Source: a virus. From it: a stretch of DNA of 16,020 bases. The stretch is taken from UHGV virus genome UHGV-0044882; one strand, given 5' to 3'. Below, piece by piece: positions 1,085 through 13,050 of the stretch. A model generated the notes under the pieces. It did no database searches. It was given only the letters and a program-made list of their open reading frames with translations, and was not told the origin of the DNA. Within the stretch, counting starts at the first letter, position 1. Every line of letters starts with the position of its first letter. Made by a program: the position numbers and the translations under genes.

Positions 1085-2851
1085 ATGAACACCACACTGA
1101 CACCCGCAGATCTCGATCCCCGTCGGCAGGCCATGCTGCTGTACTTTCAGGGATACCGCGTAGCCCGCATTGCTGAAATGCTGGGCGAGAAAGTTGCAAC
1201 CGTTCACAGCTGGAAAAAACGCGACAAGTGGGGTGACTATGGGCCGCTGGATCAGATGCAGCTCACCACCGCCGCACGCTACTGCCAGCTCATTATGAAG
1301 GAGCACAAAGAAGGGAAAGATTTCAAAGAGATTGACCTGCTGGCGCGCCAGTCGGAGCGCCATGCGCGGATCGGCAAGTTTAACAATGGCGGCAACGAAG
1401 CCGACTTAAACCCTAACGTCGCCAACCGCAACAAAGGCCCGCGCCGTCAGCCGGAAAAGAACGTTTTCACCGATGAACAGATTGAGAAGTTGGAAGAAAT
1501 CTTCCATTCCTCCATGTTCAACTACCAGCGCCACTGGTGGGAAGCCGGAAAAACCAACCGCATCCGCAACCTGCTGAAGTCACGCCAGATCGGCGCGACC
1601 TTCTATTTTGCCCGTGAAGCCCTGATTGACGCCCTGCTAACCGGGCGTAACCAGATTTTCCTTTCCGCCAGCAAGGCTCAGGCCCACGTCTTTAAGCAGT
1701 ACATCATCGACTTCGCCAAAGAAGTGGAGGTGGAGCTGAAAGGCGATCCGATGGTGCTTCCTAACGGGGCCACGCTGTACTTCCTCGGCACCAATGCCCG
1801 CACGGCCCAGAGTTACCACGGCAACCTGTATCTGGATGAATATTTCTGGATACCGAAATTCCAGGAGCTGCGCAAAGTGGCTTCCGGTATGGCTATTCAC
1901 AAAAAATGGCGACAAACCTATTTTTCCACGCCATCCAGCCTGACACACAGTGCTTATCCGTTCTGGTCCGGTGCGCTGTTCAACCGAGGGCGCAACAAAG
2001 CCGATAAGGTGGACATCGACCTGTCCCACAGCAATCTGGCCCCCGGCCTGCTGTGCGCAGACGGGCAGTACCGCCAGATAGTCACTGTGGAAGATGCGGT
2101 GCGCGGCGGCTGTAACCTGTTCGACCTCGACCAGTTGCGCATGGAGTACAGCCCGGACGAATACCAGAACCTGCTGATGTGTGAGTTCGTGGACGATCTC
2201 GCGTCTGTGTTCCCACTCAGCGAGCTGCAGGCGTGCATGGTGGACAGTTGGGAAGTCTGGACCGACTTTCATGCACTGGCCCTGCGCCCGTTTGGCTGGC
2301 GCGAAGTGTGGATCGGATATGACCCGGCGAAAGGTACGCAGAACGGCGACAGCGCCGGATGCGTGGTGGTGGCGCCGCCAGCCGTGCCGGGCGGTAAGTT
2401 CCGCATTCTTGAGCGTCACCAGTGGCGCGGAATGGACTTCCGCGCCCAGGCTGACGCCATCAAAAAACTGACCGAACAGTACAACGTGACCTATATCGGT
2501 ATCGACTCAACCGGCGTTGGTCACGGGGTTTACGAGAACGTGAAAGCGTTTTTTCCTGCCGTCCGGGAGTTTGTCTACAACCCCAACGTTAAAAACGCCC
2601 TGGTACTCAAGGCCTACGACATTATCAGCCACCGCCGTCTGGAGTTTGACGCCGGACACACCGACATAGCGCAGTCCTTTATGGCAATCCGTCGCGCCAC
2701 CACCGCCAGTGGCAACCGCCCGACCTATGAAGCCAGCCGCAGCGAAGAAGCCAGCCACGCCGATCTGGCCTGGGCAACGATGCACGCACTGTTTAACGAA
2801 CCGCTGCAGGGCGAATCCGCCAATACCAGCAATATTGTGGAGATTTTTTGA
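1085..2851 (+). CDS. P: Terminase ATPase (large) subunit gpP
   Basis: 588 aa, matching P2 gpP in length and position (upstream of Q, divergent from O). Stop TGA 2849..2851 overlaps the Q ATG at 2851. Confidence 0.9.
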   Translation: MNTTLTPADLDPRRQAMLLYFQGYRVARIAEMLGEKVATVHSWKKRDKWGDYGPLDQMQLTTAARYCQLIMKEHKEGKDFKEIDLLARQSERHARIGKFNNGGNEADLNPNVANRNKGPRRQPEKNVFTDEQIEKLEEIFHSSMFNYQRHWWEAGKTNRIRNLLKSRQIGATFYFAREALIDALLTGRNQIFLSASKAQAHVFKQYIIDFAKEVEVELKGDPMVLPNGATLYFLGTNARTAQSYHGNLYLDEYFWIPKFQELRKVASGMAIHKKWRQTYFSTPSSLTHSAYPFWSGALFNRGRNKADKVDIDLSHSNLAPGLLCADGQYRQIVTVEDAVRGGCNLFDLDQLRMEYSPDEYQNLLMCEFVDDLASVFPLSELQACMVDSWEVWTDFHALALRPFGWREVWIGYDPAKGTQNGDSAGCVVVAPPAVPGGKFRILERHQWRGMDFRAQADAIKKLTEQYNVTYIGIDSTGVGHGVYENVKAFFPAVREFVYNPNVKNALVLKAYDIISHRRLEFDAGHTDIAQSFMAIRRATTASGNRPTYEASRSEEASHADLAWATMHALFNEPLQGESANTSNIVEIF

Positions 2852-3885
2852 TGGGAAAGAGTAAGAAGAACCGCGCTGCGGCGACGAAACAGATCCAGCT
2901 TAAAAGTCAAACTACAGCCGAAGCATTCAGCTTCGGCGATCCCGTTCCTGTTCTGGACCGCCGAGAACTGCTGGATTATGTGGAATGCGTACAGATGGAC
3001 CGTTGGTATGAGCCGCCCGTCAGCTTTGACGGACTGGCGCGCACCTTCCGCGCCGCCGTGCATCACAGTTCCCCGATTGCAGTAAAGTGCAACATTCTGA
3101 CCAGTACCTATATCCCTCATCCGCTGCTCAGCCAGCAGGCTTTTTCGCGTTTTGTGCAGGACTATCTGGTATTTGGTAACGCCTACCTGGAGAAACGCAC
3201 GAACCGATTCGGTGAAGTTATCGCTCTTGAGCCTGCGCTTGCAAAATACACCCGACGCGGATTAGACCTAGATACCTACTGGTTTGTGCAATACGGTATG
3301 ACAACCCTGCCGTATCAGTTCACGAAAGGCAGCATTTTTCATCTGATGGAACCGGACATCAACCAGGAGATCTACGGCCTGCCCGGTTATCTTTCTGCCA
3401 TTCCGTCAGCCCTGCTCAACGAGTCCGCCACGCTGTTCCGCCGCAAGTATTACATTAACGGTAGCCATGCAGGCTTCATCATGTATATGACCGATGCCGC
3501 GCAGAACCAGGAAGATGTGAACAACCTCCGCAACGCAATGAAAAGCGCCAAAGGCCCTGGCAACTTCCGCAATCTGTTTATGTACTCGCCTAACGGCAAA
3601 AAGGACGGACTTCAGATTATCCCGTTGTCAGAGGTCGCAGCGAAGGATGAGTTTTTGAATATCAAGAACGTGAGTCGGGATGACATGATGGCAGCACATC
3701 GTGTGCCGCCGCAAATGATGGGGATTATGCCGAGTAATGTTGGGGGGTTTGGGGATGTGGAGAAAGCCAGCCGCGTCTTTGTTCGCAACGAGTTGATACC
3801 TCTGCAGAAGCGCCTTCAGGAATTGAACGACTGGCTTGGAGAAGAAGTCATGCGTTTTGAAGATTATAATTTAGGTATTGAATGA
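2851..3885 (+). CDS. Q: Portal (capsid portal vertex) protein gpQ
   Basis: 344 aa from ATG 2851 (the track's first M is TTG at 2848), the same length as P2 gpQ. Translationally coupled to P (TGATG). Confidence 0.88.
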   Translation: MGKSKKNRAAATKQIQLKSQTTAEAFSFGDPVPVLDRRELLDYVECVQMDRWYEPPVSFDGLARTFRAAVHHSSPIAVKCNILTSTYIPHPLLSQQAFSRFVQDYLVFGNAYLEKRTNRFGEVIALEPALAKYTRRGLDLDTYWFVQYGMTTLPYQFTKGSIFHLMEPDINQEIYGLPGYLSAIPSALLNESATLFRRKYYINGSHAGFIMYMTDAAQNQEDVNNLRNAMKSAKGPGNFRNLFMYSPNGKKDGLQIIPLSEVAAKDEFLNIKNVSRDDMMAAHRVPPQMMGIMPSNVGGFGDVEKASRVFVRNELIPLQKRLQELNDWLGEEVMRFEDYNLGIE

Positions 3886-3954: not shown

Positions 3955-4620
3955 TTAAAGATCCGGATCTACAGGCTCATGATATAGATTTACAGGGTAA
4001 TGAATAACTTCATAATTCAGTTGAGTAACTGTGTGAACATGCTGGCTATAAAAAACCAATGGATTTTTTTGACAAGGAGTAATCGTTATAGATTTACAGG
4101 CATGAATTCTTGGTGCGAATTTATCTAAATGCGCCTTCCAGTTGCTCATCATTTCATTACATTTTCTATTACGAGTATAGATAATCAATCCACCACTTGC
4201 GCTGTCTACGGTCCCTGTACTATATCGTTCAGTGAGTTGAGCATACCCTTTAAATAAATAACTATATGAAGATGTATGTTTTTTGGCTTCGCCATGCCAA
4301 ATATAATCCTTTAGTTTTATTGTAATATCACAATGTCCGCGCTGATTATTTTCATGAAATGCTTCAATGCCCATATCTTTATTTTTGATATTGGCCAATA
4401 AAATTAAAGTAAGCTGATCTTCTGTTAAATCGAAGTTTAACTTATTTGAATTCTCTTCTATTTCCTTTACAGCAGAATCAAGTTCAATCCTGACAAATTG
4501 TTTGAAATTATCGTACGATTGAAGTGCAAATCTAACACGAGTAATAGAAGCATTAATACGCTGAAGAAAAATATCATTATCAATATCAGCCAAACTCATT
4601 GCTGCAGACATTTTTAACAT
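3955..4620 (-). CDS. Hypothetical protein, third gene of the AT-rich operon; weak PD-(D/E)xK-like nuclease motif
   Basis: 221 aa, ATG 4620..4618 overlapping the stop of the upstream gene (ATGA), stop TAA 3957..3955. Segment GHCDITIKLKDYIWHGEAKKH has a D then E-x-K spacing compatible with a PD-(D/E)xK core; this is inference by eye, not a domain hit. Confidence 0.6.
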   Translation of the reverse strand: MLKMSAAMSLADIDNDIFLQRINASITRVRFALQSYDNFKQFVRIELDSAVKEIEENSNKLNFDLTEDQLTLILLANIKNKDMGIEAFHENNQRGHCDITIKLKDYIWHGEAKKHTSSYSYLFKGYAQLTERYSTGTVDSASGGLIIYTRNRKCNEMMSNWKAHLDKFAPRIHACKSITITPCQKNPLVFYSQHVHTVTQLNYEVIHYPVNLYHEPVDPDL

Positions 4621-5054
4621 CAGATAATATCCTTTGATTTAGATTCATCTAATGTAAAAAAAGGAAATACGAATGACTTATAGTCATACATAAGCTCCCC
4701 TGTAAATGGGTTTGCTAAAGATTGACTGATTTCCGCCTCAATAACTTCCTCTATTTCAAGTTCTACAGGGTCATGAAAATCATCAATGAACCAATAATTG
4801 AGTTTTAAAAAATCAACCTTTGGGCTACAAAGAATTTGTATGGCCGGATAGATAACCTGCTCATACGTTTCTGGCTGTAAAACCTTATTATAACCACCAG
4901 CTATATTAAATAAATCCTTATAACTTAAGGCTATATTTGATGATTTTTTAGCCCTTGCCTCGATTTCATCGTACAAATAGCAAGCTAACGCCCCAATTTC
5001 AGGGCGTTCTGCACACATTTCTTTGATGATCTTGGGCATATCACCATCCTTCAT
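4620..5054 (-). CDS. Hypothetical small acidic protein, middle gene of the AT-rich operon
   Basis: 144 aa from ATG 5054..5052 (track lists a TTG start at 5066). GGAG 7 nt upstream. Stop TGA overlaps the start of the downstream gene at 4620. No recognisable motif. Confidence 0.55.
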   Translation of the reverse strand: MKDGDMPKIIKEMCAERPEIGALACYLYDEIEARAKKSSNIALSYKDLFNIAGGYNKVLQPETYEQVIYPAIQILCSPKVDFLKLNYWFIDDFHDPVELEIEEVIEAEISQSLANPFTGELMYDYKSFVFPFFTLDESKSKDII

Positions 5055-5066
5055 TGCTGACTCCAA

Positions 5067-6173
5067 TTATAATATCAGCTTTGTGAGGGTTTCGAAATCA
5101 TCTTTGGATATACATTTACTTAATATAGCATAGTTAACAGGAGAGCAACTACTCCCTCCTAGATGCCTGCGGAGTGTTCCCGGAATGATAAGCTCTACGT
5201 TATCCGCTAATTGCAGTTTTGGATTATTTCTATCAACTCTAATTCCAATACGATACAAACCAATACTGCCTACTGCTTTGATGCCTTCCTTATTAAACAA
5301 ATCATCACGTAAGTCTTTAGTGGCCACATTTTTCTTTTCTTTATGCGTAGTCCCCTCATTCGTCAAAAATGACAAATCAAAGACTTTATAGCTTAATTTT
5401 GAATAAGGCAATGAATTTTGTTTGAAAATTAGCTCAATTAACGGATAAAAATCTTTTTCCGATGATTTAAATTCATAACCGACATGATTATACAATTCAC
5501 GAATAATGTTACTCTTTGCAAAAGTAACATTATCACCAATAATATTACCATTAGTATCTACCAAAACATGAATTTTATTAGTAACAGAGTCTAATATACA
5601 GACATCAAAACATTGTCGCTTTTCTTTTCGCTTTGCAATAATTTCATCAAACTGCTTGTATTGCGCAAGTGCTGACGGGGGAATTTTTTCTCTTACAACT
5701 AATTCTCTGACAGATGAAAAAACAAGTATTGACTGGGTGTTTTGAATAGAATAATTAACAAGTTCAGGTTGATTTTTTACAGCATTTTGCAATTGGACAT
5801 CATCAAGGATCGAATCAACCAATAATGATGGTTGATTCATCAAATTCCATTGAAAACTAAATCTGTCATTTAGTGTTTTAATTACACTATTATCTACAGT
5901 CAAACTAAATATTGCTTTTTCACCATAAACGACCTGACCAAAAATTAGGTCATTTACGTTTGCCATAATGCCATCAAACTTTTGCCTATCTTTACTTTTA
6001 AGATCAATGAGGCTTTCTAGTATTTTTTCGTTTGTTGCTTCACGCCCCCTACCTGTTGGCAGCCCTAAAGACGCAATAATTGGCCTTGCAACGTTCCATG
6101 TGAAACGTTCAGTTAAGGTCAAGATCGACTTTAACTCAGACTCAGAAAGCACTACTGGGACACTACCTGTCAT
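5067..6173 (-). CDS. Hypothetical protein, first and largest gene of the AT-rich operon
   Basis: 368 aa from ATG 6173..6171 (track lists GTG at 6182), AGGTG 7 nt upstream, stop TAA 5069..5067. No Walker A, HExxH or nucleotidyltransferase motif found by eye. Confidence 0.62.
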   Translation of the reverse strand: MTGSVPVVLSESELKSILTLTERFTWNVARPIIASLGLPTGRGREATNEKILESLIDLKSKDRQKFDGIMANVNDLIFGQVVYGEKAIFSLTVDNSVIKTLNDRFSFQWNLMNQPSLLVDSILDDVQLQNAVKNQPELVNYSIQNTQSILVFSSVRELVVREKIPPSALAQYKQFDEIIAKRKEKRQCFDVCILDSVTNKIHVLVDTNGNIIGDNVTFAKSNIIRELYNHVGYEFKSSEKDFYPLIELIFKQNSLPYSKLSYKVFDLSFLTNEGTTHKEKKNVATKDLRDDLFNKEGIKAVGSIGLYRIGIRVDRNNPKLQLADNVELIIPGTLRRHLGGSSCSPVNYAILSKCISKDDFETLTKLIL

Positions 6174-6322
6174 AACTTGCACCTAGTCATCCAAAAAGCA
6201 ATAAGAATTTGCTCTTGTCTTAATTTATCCTTCGATACCTAACAAATTACCTCAATGTTGAAAAAATTTGCAAGCCATTTGCTTCTAAAAAGCGACCTTA
6301 CTCAGAGTGTTACAAAACTAAG

Positions 6323-6351
6323 CGAGCGCGCGCTCGTATCCCCGCCACGCC
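6323..6351 (-). other. Candidate cos (cohesive end) site with adjacent GC palindrome
   Basis: Reverse complement of 6333..6351 is GGCGTGGCGGGGATACGAG. Its first 13 nt match the 186 cohesive end as I recall it (GGCGTGGCGGGGAAAGCAT); 14 of 19 match P2 (GGCGAGGCGGGGAAAGCAC). The G-rich strand is the one expected downstream of Q. A 14-bp palindrome cgagcgcgcgctcg sits at 6323..6336. Confidence 0.45.
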
Positions 6352-6372
6352 TGCCCGCTTTGTGTAGTGGTT

Positions 6373-6476
6373 TTCATGCAGGTGCATGACATAAGCAAAA
6401 GCCCGCCAGAACTGGCGGGCCTGCATCAAAACGATCCTCAAACGATCATGCGTTCTCATGCAGCATAGTCATGCAC
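6373..6476. repeat. Cluster of short iterated motifs beside the cos-like site
   Basis: TCATGCA(G/C) at 6374..6381, 6456..6463 and 6469..6476, plus an inverted copy at 6383..6390 forming a dyad with the first. AAACGATC direct repeat at 6429..6436 and 6440..6447. Confidence 0.4.
6396..6420 (-). terminator. Rho-independent terminator, minus strand
   Basis: Stem gcccgccag / ctggcgggc (6401..6420). On the minus strand it is followed by TTTTGCTTAT. Confidence 0.45.
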
Positions 6477-6637
6477 GGATGAGAGAAATGAATGCGCGTA
6501 TCCAAATGCCCGTTAGAAAAACGCAGATGAACTAAAAAAGCTTAAGGTCTACTATGAGCGAGAAACGGACATTTAATTTTCGAGTAGTGGAAATCGAAGC
6601 CAGTACCTGCCGGAGCCATAGTATCGAAACCACGAAC

Positions 6638-6664
6638 AATAAAAAGCCTGGAAATATCCAGGCT
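6638..6664 (-). terminator. Rho-independent terminator after the oxidoreductase gene
   Basis: Stem agcctgg / ccaggct with loop aaatat (6645..6664). On the minus strand it is followed by TTTTTAT, 36 nt after the stop at 6700. Confidence 0.6.
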
Positions 6665-6699: not shown

Positions 6700-7692
6700 T
6701 TACTCAACGGTCACAACTATTTTGCCGACCTGTCCATTGGACTCCATATAGCGCTGGGCGTCTGCAATCTCTTCGAACGGGAACGTCTTATCGATGACCG
6801 GCTTCAGTTTGCCGACTCGCAAGCCTTCTGTGATAAAGGATTTAGCGCGCGCCATTTTTTCAGAGTCCGTCGTGATTTCAAACAGCTCATATCCACGCAG
6901 GGTGAGATGCTTACCGAGAATATCAAATACAGGCACAAGCATGTCACGGCTATCGAGCGCGCCGTACTGGAAAAACATACCCTGTGGTGCCATCACCTGC
7001 GTCAGTTTTGCCACGTCCGGCCCACCGACGGGATCAAAAACAATATGGGCACCTGCGCCATCTGTTGCACGACTGATTTCAGCAACCATATCCTGCTCCG
7101 CAGTAGCAATGACGGCGGCTGCGCCAGCTTTAAGGAGCATTTCGCTTTTTTCAGAGGTCCGTGTGAGTGCAATTGGGTTTGCACCCAGCATGTTAGCAAT
7201 CTGTATGGCAGCCAGACCCACGCTGCTTGATGCTGCGCGGATCACGACATTCTGACCAGCCTGAAGGTTGCCATACTCAACCAGCGCACCATAAGCGGTG
7301 ACATACATCATCCAGCTTGCGGCGGCTTCCTCGAATGAAAGGTTTTCAGGATGCTTTACGACAGCATGAACCGGTGCGTTGACCACTTCACCATACATGC
7401 CGTATTCATTAAACATAAATGAAGGGATCACGCTTACCCGATCTCCAGTGGTAAACTCATCTACATTCTCACCTACTGCCTGTACAACGCCGGCCGCTTC
7501 ATAACCAAGACGTGCCGGAAATTCCGGCTCAATAACATATTGGCCGTTGCGGTACATGATTTCTGCACGGTTGATACCTATCGCATGTACGCGGATCTGC
7601 ACTTCACCCGCTGTCGGTGCAGGCACCTGCACATCAACAACTTCCAGCACTTCCGGGCCACCGGTGCGGTTAAAGGTAATAACTTTAGACAT
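6700..7692 (-). CDS. MDR-superfamily NAD(P)H:quinone oxidoreductase-like (zinc-type alcohol dehydrogenase family)
   Basis: 330 aa from ATG 7692 (track TTG at 7698). N-terminus MSKVITFNRTGGPEVLEVVDV and a Gly-rich nucleotide-binding stretch AASSSVGLAAIQ resemble E. coli Qor-type quinone reductases. Confidence 0.85.
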   Translation of the reverse strand: MSKVITFNRTGGPEVLEVVDVQVPAPTAGEVQIRVHAIGINRAEIMYRNGQYVIEPEFPARLGYEAAGVVQAVGENVDEFTTGDRVSVIPSFMFNEYGMYGEVVNAPVHAVVKHPENLSFEEAAASWMMYVTAYGALVEYGNLQAGQNVVIRAASSSVGLAAIQIANMLGANPIALTRTSEKSEMLLKAGAAAVIATAEQDMVAEISRATDGAGAHIVFDPVGGPDVAKLTQVMAPQGMFFQYGALDSRDMLVPVFDILGKHLTLRGYELFEITTDSEKMARAKSFITEGLRVGKLKPVIDKTFPFEEIADAQRYMESNGQVGKIVVTVE

Positions 7693-7841
7693 ATTCAACT
7701 CTCTTCAGTTAAAGGCACACCTTCAGAATAATGCCGAAGGGATGCCCGAATCATTTGTGAACAATCTACGTTGTTACGAACACACCAGAAATAGCTGAGA
7801 GGGAACTTCAGTATTAATTATCCATTAACAATCCGCCTGCT

Positions 7842-8744
7842 TCAGCGGATCTGCGTGGCCAGAATATCACTGAACCAGTCGATAAAGACGCGCACTTTTG
7901 GAGAAAGGTAGCGCCTGTCGGGATACATCACTGACACGGGCTTTGACACCGATGGGTATTGCGGCAGAATCTCTTCAAGAGCGCCGGAAGCAATATGGGG
8001 AGCAACGGCATCATAGGTAGCCTGGATAATGCCCAGACCAGCCAGAGCACAAGAAAGCAGAATATCGGAATTATCAACCAGCAGGCTGCCCGCAGGACGT
8101 AGCGAAACAATGCTCCCGTCTTCGATAAACTTCCATTCCATGACGTCACGACTGTGGTCGCTAAAAAAGTTAATTGCCCGATGTTTATCCAGATCCGCAA
8201 GTGTTTCTGGCCGCTCATGCTGCTGCAGGTAAGACGGGGCTGCACAGGTAACCATCCGGATGTCACCAAGACGTCTGGATATAAAACTAGAATCTTGAAG
8301 CGCCCCCAGGCGGACAAGGCAATCTACGCCTTCCGTAATCAAATCAGTTTTTTTATCGGAAGAAACCAGCACAACTTCAATACCTGGATACAGTGCCTGA
8401 AAATGCCTGAGATTAGGGATCAATATGGAATGCGCCAGCGCCAGGGGCACATCAAGTCTCAGGCGTCCTCGCGGTGGAAGTGTCGGTGAAAAACTGGCCA
8501 TCATGTCATTAACTTCGGCCAGAACATGCCTAGCATGATGATAGAACTCATCCCCTTCAGCAGTAACGCTCAGCTTTCGGGTTGTGCGATAAATGAGTTT
8601 TACACCCAGATCATGCTCTATCTGCTGTATCGCTTTGCTCACAGTGGGGCGATGAATCTGAAGTACATCAGCAGCTTTCGTGAAGCTACCCTGCTCAACA
8701 ACCTGTATGAAAATATTTAGGTATTCAATCATGTTGGCATGCAC
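7842..8744 (-). CDS. LysR-family transcriptional regulator (LTTR)
   Basis: About 300 aa. N-terminal HTH signature VVEQGSFTKAADVL..PTVSKAIQQIEHDLGVKLIYRTTRKLSVTAEG followed by a co-inducer domain. Start is GTG 8744 (AGGTGA 5 nt upstream) or ATG 8732. Confidence 0.85.
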   Translation of the reverse strand: MHANMIEYLNIFIQVVEQGSFTKAADVLQIHRPTVSKAIQQIEHDLGVKLIYRTTRKLSVTAEGDEFYHHARHVLAEVNDMMASFSPTLPPRGRLRLDVPLALAHSILIPNLRHFQALYPGIEVVLVSSDKKTDLITEGVDCLVRLGALQDSSFISRRLGDIRMVTCAAPSYLQQHERPETLADLDKHRAINFFSDHSRDVMEWKFIEDGSIVSLRPAGSLLVDNSDILLSCALAGLGIIQATYDAVAPHIASGALEEILPQYPSVSKPVSVMYPDRRYLSPKVRVFIDWFSDILATQIR

Positions 8745-8966: not shown

Positions 8967-9200
8967 TCAGTGTAACCAGCTGTCGTCTTCCCAGACCTGC
9001 TGCAGAATTTCCATTACACGTTCCTTATCTTCAGCCTGTCTTACCCCGCTAAGTTCAATACCATTGGCGCTGCCCTTGCGGATTCGGATAGCTGTTTTTG
9101 GGTAGAGGGGGCGCAAATTTCGGTAAAGCTCGGATTCAAGTGCTTCTAAAAGCACCTGGCTAATTTTCTGCTCTTTATCGATCATTATTTCAATGCGCAT
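8967..9200 (-). CDS. DinI-family protein
   Basis: 77 aa from ATG 9200 (MRIEIMIDK..). Aligns by eye with E. coli DinI along its length, including the C-terminal EILQQVWEDDSW versus DinI EILQETWESADDW. SD AGGGGA upstream. The track ORF extends to 9245, but the internal ATG fits the family. Confidence 0.8.
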   Translation of the reverse strand: MRIEIMIDKEQKISQVLLEALESELYRNLRPLYPKTAIRIRKGSANGIELSGVRQAEDKERVMEILQQVWEDDSWLH

Positions 9201-9210
9201 AGATTTTCCC

Positions 9211-9399
9211 CTAACAGGTAACGTCCATTGTTCGGCTGTATTCATGGTTGCGGATTTTCGCCATCAGCTCGTCAGTCAGCTCGGAAACCCACTGGATGGC
9301 CAGCCCCTTCTCTTCATCACTACACTCACTAGCCGCTACAAGCTTAAGAAAAAAATCAATGCGCTGGAGCTTCAAAGACTCCAAAAAATAGTCCTGCAT
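9211..9399 (-). CDS. Small SOS-regulated protein; possible Tum-like antirepressor N-terminal module
   Basis: 62 aa, ATG 9399..9397 with strong SD AGGAGG 5 nt upstream. Lies directly downstream of a LexA operator; stop TAG is 10 nt before the DinI-like ATG. Function inferred from position only. Confidence 0.5.
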   Translation of the reverse strand: MQDYFLESLKLQRIDFFLKLVAASECSDEEKGLAIQWVSELTDELMAKIRNHEYSRTMDVTC

Positions 9400-9551: not shown

Positions 9552-11972
9552 TTAATACAGCTCCCGCCACTTATCATCTTCCTGCAAACGCTGGTTCCGA
9601 TAGAAGATACGCAGGCCTGCTCCTGACGGAATACTGCCGCCGCAAAGGAGTAAATCGACTTCTTTCTCGCTGCCATCAAATCCTCTGGACTTCAGTTCAT
9701 AGACGAGCTGCTGTCGCTGATGGTCTGTAATTCGCTGTTTGTAGTCTTTACGCCGTTTCGGTTTCACCTGGCGTAACCTTGCAGCCAGTTCCCGGCGCTC
9801 TTTTTTGCTCATACTGTGCAGGTAATCGTGCAACTCCTTGTCATCCATGCGGGTAATGTCCGTTCTGGTATCCCCATCAGCTGATTTGTCGTTCCCTTGT
9901 TGGCTCAAATTTTCAGCAAGGGGACAGTTATTGCCACGAGTCCGAGTCCAAGGGGCGCAAGCGCCCTGGTCGGCTGCCGCCTCCTGAACGTCAACGGCCT
10001 TACGAACCATTTTCCACTTCACGGCATGAGTGCAGATCTTGCCCTCTGCAATAGGTGACCAGATGCCATAAATACGAATGCCGTGATCGCCATAGACGGT
10101 CGGCTCTTCGTTGATTTCATAAGCAGTTCTGATGAGGTGATATTTGCGGGGAACCAGTACGCCACCCTGCTTCATGATGTAGGTGGCAAAACAACCAGCA
10201 TCAGCAGCAGCCAGAATGGCATCAAGGCGCGGGTTATCCAGTACCGGCGCACCTGCTTTTTTGTCCCCCTGTTGCCTTGCCGCCTGACCAGCCAGCAATC
10301 GCAGTTCACGGTAAGCCTGACGCCCCGGAATGCCAAAGAAGCGGAATTGCTGAACACGATGCAGAGACGCCCAGGCATTAACGTATTCAGCATTCTCACG
10401 CAGGGATTTCCCCGTTTCCTTGCTGATCTCGCCAGCCAGACCACGCCCGTCAATGTTCTTACTGATGTATTTCGCGATGTAGCTTGTTGGCGTACCTTTG
10501 CGCGGGTTAATCAACTCAGACTTAAAGCGCGGCCCAGTGTTATTGCCCAGCTCCTCGCGGTCTTCACGGATGGCAAACTTACGCAGTAATGCAGTGATGG
10601 TGCGGCGGTCTTTTTTGCGCATAAAACACAACAGGTGCCAGTGAACTGTACCGTCATGATGCGGCTCAGCCACCCGCACGCCATACCACCGCAATCCGGC
10701 TTTGTGCATCGCCTTACGAAATGCAGCAAACATGCCGACCAGATAATCACTGCTTTGTCTTACCGTCGCATTTGTCCAGGTTGGGTTGGGCCTGCCGTTA
10801 TTTAGCGTGGAATGGAAACGTGACGGACAGGTGATGGTGTAGAAAACGGCGCAGTCACCGCGCATTTCCGCGATAAGCTCCAGACCTTTAACACAGGCCA
10901 TCATCTCATTGCGGCGATGCGCCGGGTTGCTGCTGCTGGCGTTTACCACATCCTCCATGTCCAGCGTGTCGCCCTCTTCGTTCACCAGTTCATGAGAACG
11001 GAAAAACTCCAGCGACTTACGGCGCTGCTCACGTTTATGCATCACGGCTTCATAGCTGACATAAGGAGATGCTTTTTTGCTGACAAGGCAGACTGCACGC
11101 AACTGCTCTTCCCGCCATTCGCAACGCATCTTCCATAATTTCCGATACCACCAATCGGCGCACAACATACGCGCCAGCGAACCCGGAATGAGTTCATAGG
11201 GCACGGGTTTACGGCGGTTTCTTTTCCGACGGAGTTGCTCAAACGCAGGCGGGATGACATCCAGACGCAGGGTTTCCGCTGCCACCCTTTCCCATGTATT
11301 GCGGATTTCTTCTGGCTTAACGTCATCGGTGGCATACAAATCGCCACAAGCGGCATCAAGGCACATACTCATATGCGCAGCTACCAGGGTGGACAGGCGT
11401 TTCACCTGATCCTGACTCATTTCAGGCAGGATCAGCAGGCCGTCCAGCCCTTCATGGCTTGCCATAAAGCGAAAAGATGCAGATAGCTGACTGTCGCGTA
11501 CATGCTCCAGTCGTTCCAGACATGGCTTAATCGTCTCACGTAAATAGCGGGAATAAGCCTTTGGCCTGCCCAGGCTGCTGAAGTATTCAATACGTTGCAT
11601 CAGCGGCTTGCTGATATGGGAAGGCTGGGCGTTGACGTCCGCCAGAATGACCATATCCGGATTAAAACGCTGCTGCTCATGCGCCAGCTTTGCCCGACTA
11701 ATGAGCTTATCCTGTTCCATTTCGCGCTGGACAGGATCACGGGATTCATTAAAGAAATAACGCTCCCAGACCTGATCACTCAGCGCCTCACGGCGCAGCT
11801 GTTCCTGCTCGTTATCGGCAGCGTACAGAGTGATCAGGTTTGAAAGCGTAGAAACCGGCGCAACTTCCACCGGGTCCAGATAAGGGTTAATGGCCTTTTT
11901 CGGGCTGTTCCATGAGAACGATGCGGCAGCTTCGTTAAAGCCGCAGCAGTTGTTCATATCGGCATGACTCAT
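9552..11972 (-). CDS. A: Replication initiation protein gpA (rolling-circle nicking endonuclease)
   Basis: 806 aa at the position of P2/186 gene A. Contains a paired-tyrosine segment YIAKYISKN of the kind found in gpA-type initiators. ATG 11972 overlaps the Dam stop. Confidence 0.85.
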
Positions 11973-12826
11973 GCACGTACTCCGTACACGGCAGAACTAT
12001 CCACGCCACGCGAATAATCAAATCCCACCCAGCAGCGCGGCCCGGAAACAGCAATGATTTCTGTTGCTGATTTACCCTCGCCAGCTGCCACACCGATGCT
12101 GCGTTTTGCCTTGATGTAGTGGTGAGTAAAATTGCGATACAGCGAACGGATCAGGGATGTGTCACTGTTAGAAACAATGACCGGATGTCCTTCTGATGAC
12201 CGATGTTCAAGAACAGATGCCAGGTGATACTGGTCATCTTCAGTGAAGCCGTCAGTGTGATAGCCGGAAAACGTACCGTCATACGGCGGATCGCAATACA
12301 CCACATCCCCCGCCTTCAACATCGCCAGCGTTTCATCAAAGCTGGCGCAGATAAACGTTGCTCGCTGGGCCTTTTCTGCAAATGCGCGAATTTCTTTTTC
12401 AGGGAAATACGGATTTTTATAATTACCGTAGGGAATGTTGAAATGCCCGCTCTTGTTATAGCGACATAAACCACGGTAACCGTGACGATTGAGATACAGG
12501 AAATATACCGCTTTCATGAAATCAGTAATTTCAGTGGAGTAATTAAACTCCTGCCTTATGTTGTAATAAGCCACCTCCCTGTTTGCGATCTCAAATAAAA
12601 CTCTGGCGCGAGATATAAACGATTCACAATCAGCGGCAACCTTTTTATAGAGGTTTATTAAATCAGGATTAATATCCGCAACCAGATAGCTGGGGTAATC
12701 CGTCTCCATCATCACAGCACAGGAACCCGCGAAAGGTTCAACCAGTCGCGGGCCAGCAGGAAGGTGTTTTTTCAGTTCGGACATAATGGCGGTTTTATTT
12801 CCCGCCCATTTCAGGATGGTGCTCAT
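11969..12826 (-). CDS. dam: Dam-type DNA N6-adenine methyltransferase (orphan)
   Basis: 285 aa from ATG 12826 (the track ORF starts 20 codons upstream). Motifs [16 protein letters not shown] (AdoMet site), [15 protein letters not shown] and catalytic DPPY align with E. coli Dam as recalled. GGAGGTG SD upstream. Confidence 0.9.
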
Positions 12827-13050
12827 ACAGCACCTCCGTTGTAATGTTTGCCTTTCAGCTCTGCGATTTCCTGGCAGGTAATGCAAAGATGCACTCCCGG
12901 AATGGCGCGGCGTCGTGCTGGCGGAATTGGCGCTTCACATTCAATACAAAGCACGCGAGACACGCCCGGTGTTTTGGCACGGGCAGCACGAATATGGCGC
13001 TGGCGTTCTTCTTCAACGCGCTGCTGTACGAGATCCATTGCATCAGCCAT
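12823..13050 (-). CDS. TraR/DksA-family C4-type zinc-finger protein
   Basis: 75 aa with CIECEAPIP and CITCQ (CxxC-N17-CxxC), typical of phage and plasmid TraR-like proteins. Stop overlaps the Dam ATG; start overlaps the stop of the upstream ORF. Confidence 0.75.
   Translation of the reverse strand: MADAMDLVQQRVEEERQRHIRAARAKTPGVSRVLCIECEAPIPPARRRAIPGVHLCITCQEIAELKGKHYNGGAV

Follow-up and report, generated by a model that had tools for sequence, protein, structure and literature searches.

A conserved block of about 151 bp between the portal and replication genes as the probable cos site of a Fels-2-type P2-like prophage

In P2-like phages the cohesive-end site, cos, lies between gpA and gpQ, and a cos-proximal hotspot of these phages has been described by Rousset et al. 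(PMC9122126); the slot between cos and Q is likewise an insertion hotspot in phiCTX and in Ralstonia phages (PMC5694545). Phages of the P2 type use monomeric circles as the substrate of packaging (PMC2231350), and P4, which shares only cos with P2, is packaged by the P2 terminase (PMC9122126, PMC2231350). A cos core of 55 bp is quoted for the family and ascribed to Ziermann and Calendar (1990) in passages of two later papers (PMC5694545, PMC9594776). GenBank records carry annotated cos features for P2 (GGCGAGGCGGGGAAAGCAC) and 186 (GGCGTGGCGGGGAAAGCAT), and the genome paper of SEN8 gives “a cos site (ggcgtggcggggatacgag)” (PMC5427200), which in that paper was assigned by annotation. The closest described relatives of the locus reported here are the cos sites of Felsduovirus members (SEN8, Fels-2, RE-2010, SopEPhi), with which it shares the 19-mer of SEN8, a 151-bp block that is 88–92% identical, and the gene order of Fels-2, and from which it differs only in the flanking cargo genes. 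The kind of element and its sequence are already known, as the same 19-mer and block occur in published phages. The additions made here are modest and consist of the 151-bp boundary, an in-register distal TGCAT triplet, a putative GCGCGC nicking half-site, and a pair of GATC sites.

The DNA analysed, called the window below, is the 16,020-nucleotide stretch of UHGV virus genome UHGV-0044882. It is a Fels-2-type (Felsduovirus) P2-like prophage, in which the genes O (scaffold), P (terminase), Q (portal), a first cargo, the block, a second cargo, DinI, A (replication protein), and Dam follow one another in synteny with Salmonella prophage Fels-2. The genes that frame the block are as follows.

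1085-2851, plus strand: gpP-type large terminase (Pfam Terminase_6N/6C/Terminase_5)
2848-3885, plus strand: portal protein (Pfam Phage_portal)
3955-4620, 4620-5066, and 5067-6182, minus strand: left cargo of three ORFs, between portal gene Q and cos
6700-8744, minus strand: right cargo, a zinc-dependent alcohol dehydrogenase (ADH) and a LysR regulator (Pfam)
8967-9245, minus strand: DinI (Pfam)
9552-11972, minus strand: P2 gpA-type replication protein (Pfam Phage_GPA)
11969-12886, minus strand: Dam methylase (Pfam)

The block therefore has the location between Q and A, in company with a gpP-type terminase, that is characteristic of P2-family cos. In P2 and 186, cos adjoins Q directly, whereas here 2.3 kb of cargo stand between the two. 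Positions within the block are counted below on the minus strand from base 1 of the 19-mer, so that relative position r corresponds to window position 6351 − r. Its parts are listed here.

6326..6476, unstranded: whole conserved cos unit of about 151 bp, in which the 19-nt overhang is followed by 7 bp toward portal gene Q and by about 125 bp toward replication gene A
6326..6331, unstranded: GCGCGC, the portal-side half of the putative symmetric nicking site, in the same place (+20 to +25) in the window, P2, 186, and P4
6333..6351, minus strand: predicted 19-nt 5' cohesive end, GGCGTGGCGGGGATACGAG (the reverse complement), placed by homology
6353..6358, minus strand: GCGGGC, the replication-side half of the putative symmetric nicking site, placed by conservation of cos regions
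6374-6380 (plus), 6383-6389 (minus), 6456-6462 (plus), and 6469-6475 (plus): copies of TCATGCA, the first two forming an inverted pair
6374..6389, unstranded: proximal inverted pair TCATGCA-GG-TGCATGA, which on the minus strand reads as TGCAT at -29, ATGCA at -36, and then AAAACC
6399..6422, minus strand: GC-rich, terminator-like hairpin with a 9-10 bp stem and a 2-4 nt loop, followed by TTTTGCTT
6433..6447, unstranded: GATC (Dam) pair, 11 bp apart (6433-6436 and 6444-6447), inside the AAACGATC repeat and adjoining the third distal repeat
6446-6452: degenerate fifth copy, TCATGCG, which the preliminary description had not counted and which on the minus strand is CGCAT at -101
6446..6475, minus strand: distal array of three direct repeats, (T/C)GCAT at -101, -111, and -124

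Taken together, these parts are very probably the cos site of a Fels-2-type P2-like prophage, in which 6326-6476 would combine a terminase cut yielding 19-nt ends, a symmetric nicking element, a TGCAT docking array, and a terminator in the spacer. Identity of the 19-mer, in-register homology to the cos sites that experiment has defined in P2, 186, and P4, the position between Q and A, and the sharp edges of conservation all support this assignment. It agrees with the preliminary description, which had proposed from the sequence of the window a cos-like motif resembling the ends of 186 and P2, and for which the identity with SEN8, the cosR feature of phage fiAA91-ss, the Q-A position, and the in-register motifs now speak.

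The resemblance that had been noted between the complement of 6333..6351 and the 19-nt ends of 186 and P2 can be given in numbers. When GGCGTGGCGGGGATACGAG is compared with the annotated cos features, 15/19 bases match 186 and 14/19 match P2, and the match with SEN8 is complete. The first 13 nt of the window overhang are exactly those of 186, and the difference is concentrated in the last six, which read TACGAG here and AAGCAC or AAGCAT in P2, 186, and P4. The 6333-6351 interval conforms to the G-rich P2-family pattern GGCG(A/T)GGCGGGGA......, and GGCGWGGCGGGGA occurs only once when the whole 16-kb window is scanned. The 19-mer is also the most frequent of its kind, being present in 36 of the 119 unique sequences of a set derived from IMG/VR. 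Two records point to this interval: the terminus of the SEN8 record falls exactly opposite window position 6352 in the blastn alignment, and the annotated cosR feature of fiAA91-ss corresponds to window 6333-6352. By homology to the annotated P2 and 186 sites, the nicks are predicted to fall 19 nt apart, on the minus strand between 6352|6351 and on the plus strand between 6332|6333.

Next to the overhang, a repeat finder located a perfect 14-bp palindrome, CGAGCGCGCGCTCG, at 6323-6336. The preliminary description had drawn attention to this palindrome as a whole, which proved only partly meaningful: it is perfect and lies where stated, but its outer bases, 6323-6325, are unconserved. Relatives with an identical 19-mer diverge fully just past CGCGCGC, so that 6323-6325 belong to the variable flank and the outer three nucleotides of the palindrome are particular to the present cargo junction. 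Its conserved parts are limited to CGAG, which lies inside the overhang, and CGCGCGC, with GCGCGC as the sole conserved piece beyond the overhang. The GCGCGC core is accounted for as one half of a two-fold symmetric nicking element. The predicted nicks are bordered by GCGGGC(A)| on one side and by |(C/T)GCGCGC on the other, and on the cut strands GCGCGC(R)| mirrors GCGGGC(R)|, giving a two-fold symmetric GCG(G/C)GC(R) in the window, P2, 186, and P4. These four sequences constitute the independent evidence for GCGCGC, which belonged to the pattern used in the IMG/VR search; GCGGGC and AAGCGGGCA lay outside that pattern, and AAGCGGGCA is at least 80-95% conserved over the 119 cos regions. The symmetric elements (GCGSGC) that flank the nicks would position the nuclease.

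The extent of the unit was defined from its relatives. A blastn search of 50,697 phage records found the block in about 100 of them, with matches confined to 6325/6326-6476/6477 at 85-92% identity; the matching records are P2-like phages of Klebsiella, Yersinia, Escherichia, Salmonella, Erwinia, Aeromonas, and Ralstonia, and include Fels-2, RE2010, SopEPhi, and SEN8. A pattern scan of IMG/VR supplied 119 unique cos regions (the window, P2, and 186 being counted among them), or 120 with P4; within this set, the search pattern itself accounts in part for how well the 19-mer core and GCGCGC are conserved. In the 36 IMG/VR relatives with an identical 19-mer, conservation runs from +25 to -125 (6326-6476) and ends abruptly on both sides in unrelated flanks, and each conserved position is intact in the window block. 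Over the 119 regions, the overhang, AAGCGGGCA, AAAACC, and the TGCAT motifs stand out as the peaks of conservation. The most conserved stretch, from -29 to +25 (6326-6380), is 55 bp long and aligns gap-free with P2, 186, and P4; it thus fits the quoted 55-bp core, and the proximal inverted pair of repeats forms the outer edge of this core. The sharp edges left by recombination act as a natural deletion analysis, which puts the cos unit at about 151 bp, clearly more than the usual 55-bp core.

Among complete E. coli genomes, 1247/5426 contain a match to the block. This breadth, together with its occurrence in more than 100 phage records, bears directly on the idea that the motif cluster arose by chance in an intergenic region. 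Window-wide counts of TCATGCA and TGCATG do not exceed expectation (for TCATGCA, 6 observed and 3.9 expected, which is unremarkable), but four copies of TCATGCA within 110 bp were obtained in 0/2000 dinucleotide-preserving shuffles, in which the largest cluster was three copies, seen three times. A chance origin has a negligible probability and is already refuted by the conservation data. The block also does not behave as coding sequence: it holds no ORF of at least 50 aa, only ORFs of 25-49 aa overlapping it, and its variation shows no three-base (codon) periodicity. A coding block was ruled out on these two grounds. In MK416011.1, MK422453.1, PP599993.1, and other records a “hypothetical protein” is annotated over the cos block; these annotations are probably spurious. 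Scanning of the whole window at the Rfam gathering threshold gave no match.

A further alternative is that the site is intact in sequence yet functionally dead, as part of a defective prophage that has lost the ability to package DNA. The window covers 16 kb, and the genes for gpM, capsid, tail, and integrase lie outside it, which leaves room for such a defect. However, the ORFs of O, P, Q, A, Dam, and DinI all have their full length and match their families strongly, and the cos block shows 85-92% identity to those of the plaque-forming isolates SEN8 and RE2010 with every conserved position kept, so that a dead site is considered very unlikely.

The four copies of TCATGCA within about 100 bp, two of them inverted, that the preliminary description had reported were recovered at the coordinates given above, and in relatives the motifs hold their register in P2, 186, P4, Erwinia phage ENT90, and a Ralstonia phage. 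TGCAT is found at -29 in 116/120 sequences and the inverted ATGCA at -36 in 81/120; 186 and ENT90 carry both motifs, and P2, P4, and Ralstonia phage YO009_3 likewise carry the TGCAT at -29. The two pentamers together average 4.7 copies between -130 and -1, as compared with 0.2 and 0.14 in the flanks. In the distal array, positions differ by at most one base from those in 186, P4, P2, and YO009_3: the window, 186, and P4 align without gaps, as does P2 except for a one-base shift of the outermost repeat. YO009_3 has the same repeat layout, including CGCAT at -101, and that of ENT90 is similar. The array stops exactly at the edge of conservation. The block has in common with the cos sites of P2, 186, and P4 the GCGGGC and GCGCGC elements that flank the nicks, AAAACC, TGCAT at -29, and three distal TGCAT repeats at about -124, -111, and -101. 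Of the two TCATGCA copies outside cos, one, at 11969-11975, stands exactly where the stop of the gpA ORF and the start region of the Dam ORF overlap by four bases, and looks coincidental.

P4 retains all four TGCAT positions. As packaging is all that P4 has to share with P2 and P4 yet keeps these repeats, they are most likely terminase recognition sites, putatively analogous to those of lambda cosB. The cos of lambda consists of a nicking site, cosN, and of cosB, which contains the small-terminase sites R3-I1-R2-R1, with gpNu1 as the binding protein and I1 as the IHF site. Judged from anatomy, the two systems would share a nicking site that is partly two-fold symmetric, short repeats arrayed asymmetrically on one side of it, and the division of these repeats by a spacer into proximal and distal groups. 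They differ in that there is no sequence similarity, in that the overhang has 19 nt here and 12 nt in lambda, and in that the present phage does not belong to the lambda family. No IHF-like site was recognised in the block when it was read by eye against the IHF consensus. The preliminary description had offered terminase binding, or another packaging function, as the role of the motifs; of this suggestion, the packaging function is strengthened by the in-register conservation that extends to P4, and the small terminase stands as the presumed binding partner.

The distal array is not universal, given that it is missing from the distant P2-like Aeromonas phage vB_AsaM_LPM4, where the 55-bp core and a central hairpin are kept and three GGATC-containing repeats replace the distal TGCAT triplet. 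The exchange of TGCAT for GGATC in LPM4 may reflect a switched specificity of the small terminase.

Between the two sets of repeats lies the hairpin, whose presence had been noted earlier and which the repeat finder resolved into a 9-bp GC-rich stem with 100% complementarity (6401-6409 paired with 6412-6420). A terminator scan scored 6399-6422 on the minus strand as 10 pairs, seven of them GC, with a 4-nt loop and the tail TTGCTTATGT, which is the combination of stem-loop and T-run expected of an intrinsic terminator. Many members of the family, among them 186, P4, and Aeromonas phage LPM4, have a palindrome of the CGCCAG-NN-CTGGCG type near -66, with stems that differ in sequence; in the 120-sequence set the stem is missing from P2 and many other relatives. 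The hairpin was consequently dropped as a defining part of cos, and is interpreted as a lineage-variable predicted intrinsic terminator. In close relatives from IMG/VR the stem is identical and the loop is AA (n=13) or TT (n=8). The most likely role of the hairpin, as judged from its form and place, would be to insulate the nicking site from transcription reading through from the cargo side.

In a rival division of the block, the 55-bp core alone would be cos, and the remainder, 6390-6476, which holds the hairpin, the two GATC sites, and the distal set of TGCAT repeats, would be a transcription-control or insulator region made up, for example, of operators for a phage regulator and a terminator that ends the early or cargo unit. 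For transcription arriving from the cargo side, the hairpin has a terminator-like T-run, in 186 the annotated terminators t95a and t95b precede cos on that same side, the literature names the 55-bp core only, and in LPM4 other repeats take the place of the distal ones. The spacing of the distal repeats nevertheless argues for packaging: their distance from the nick is held in P2 (within one base), 186, P4, and the Ralstonia phage despite wholly different neighbouring genes, and conservation ends at the last repeat whatever cargo follows. P4, moreover, is regulated by another circuit and shares with P2 packaging alone (PMC9122126), and in one study longer cos flanks improved cosmid transduction (PMC9594776). 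A separate regulatory module is unlikely, and the full 151-bp block is retained as the cos unit.

On this assignment of the full block to cos, the following sequence of events is proposed. After replication, the terminase, with gpP as its large subunit and gpM, encoded outside the window, as its small subunit, would recognise the block on circular phage DNA. The TGCAT array (-29 and -36; -101, -111, and -124) would serve for the docking of gpM on one side of the nick, in the manner of the lambda cosB R sites, and nicking at 6352|6351 and 6332|6333 would produce linear genomes with the 5' overhangs GGCGTGGCGGGGATACGAG. The hairpin in the spacer between the repeat sets would stop transcription of the cargo and early genes before it reached the nicking site. 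A 151-bp unit with a TGCAT triplet at fixed distance is useful for the design of P2/P4 cosmids and transducing particles, and the conserved layout helps in the automatic location of cos in P2-like prophages.

The AAACGATC direct repeat that had been pointed out earlier was found at 6429-6436 and 6440-6447 by the repeat finder, and it is here that the two GATC sites reside. P2, 186, and P4, unlike the present locus, are without this pair, which is present at both -96 and -85 in 39/120 sequences, almost all of the GATACGAG/T cos class. Among relatives, GATC persists on both sides of several different 7-nt spacers. For loci that reach the gpA start, Dam is present in 17/22 with the pair and in 1/20 without it, and three pair-bearing loci with sufficient flank have no Dam. 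The pair-bearing loci all have a Fels-2-type gpA (82-98% identity), and in the remaining loci the gpA is, with few exceptions, of the P2 type (about 30%). The association of the pair with Dam was therefore rejected as evidence of a functional link, being inseparable from shared ancestry, since gpA type tracks the pair.

The pac site of phage P1 is rich in GATC, and its cleavage is under the control of Dam methylation. The present locus resembles it in having conserved GATC sites inside a packaging signal in a phage lineage with its own Dam; it differs in having two or three GATC only and in being a cos rather than a headful packaging site, and shared ancestry explains the association equally well. 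By analogy, the GATC pair of the Fels-2-type lineage, one helical turn apart, might make recognition of cos sensitive to Dam methylation or SeqA, so that packaging would be timed by the methylation state of new DNA, with rapid methylation by the phage's own Dam (11969-12886). This proposal is speculative and quite unlikely to be correct; the pair in a Dam-encoding lineage is a weak lead, confounded with phylogeny.

The assignment fixes the predicted ends of the prophage genome and shows that cos is flanked by two separate cargo slots. The left cargo (3955-6182) has 30-37% GC, as compared with about 52% in the phage core, and gave no sequence match in Pfam, PADLOC, NCBIfam, or PDB, matching only the PHROGs 9664, 11490, and 12777, of unknown function. 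Because it occupies the P2 defence hotspot, it is a candidate for an uncharacterised anti-phage system. An exact search for the junction between cargo and cos, with each species represented by a single genome, gave no hit. The cassette has an identical location in 21 complete E. coli genomes, which share the left cargo and cos at 98-99% identity up to window position 6475, where homology ends; one of the 21 has a gene with a HEPN domain where ADH and LysR stand in the window.

ADH and LysR are metabolic and regulatory in character, not defence-like, and are unusual as cargo in the P2 hotspot. Only three E. coli genomes have the ADH-LysR cargo. The pair (99.7% identity) also occurs in the tRNA-Phe island of E. 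coli G3/10, beside integrase genes, with homology beginning at about window position 6544. Exchange of the cargo by way of a P4-type cos was considered and set aside, as no cos motif is present in this island. Directly after the ADH gene, at 6645-6664 on the minus strand, stands a second terminator-like hairpin, AGCCTGGA-TATT-TCCAGGCT followed by TTTTTATT, which belongs to the imported cargo module, since it is present in the G3/10 island as well.
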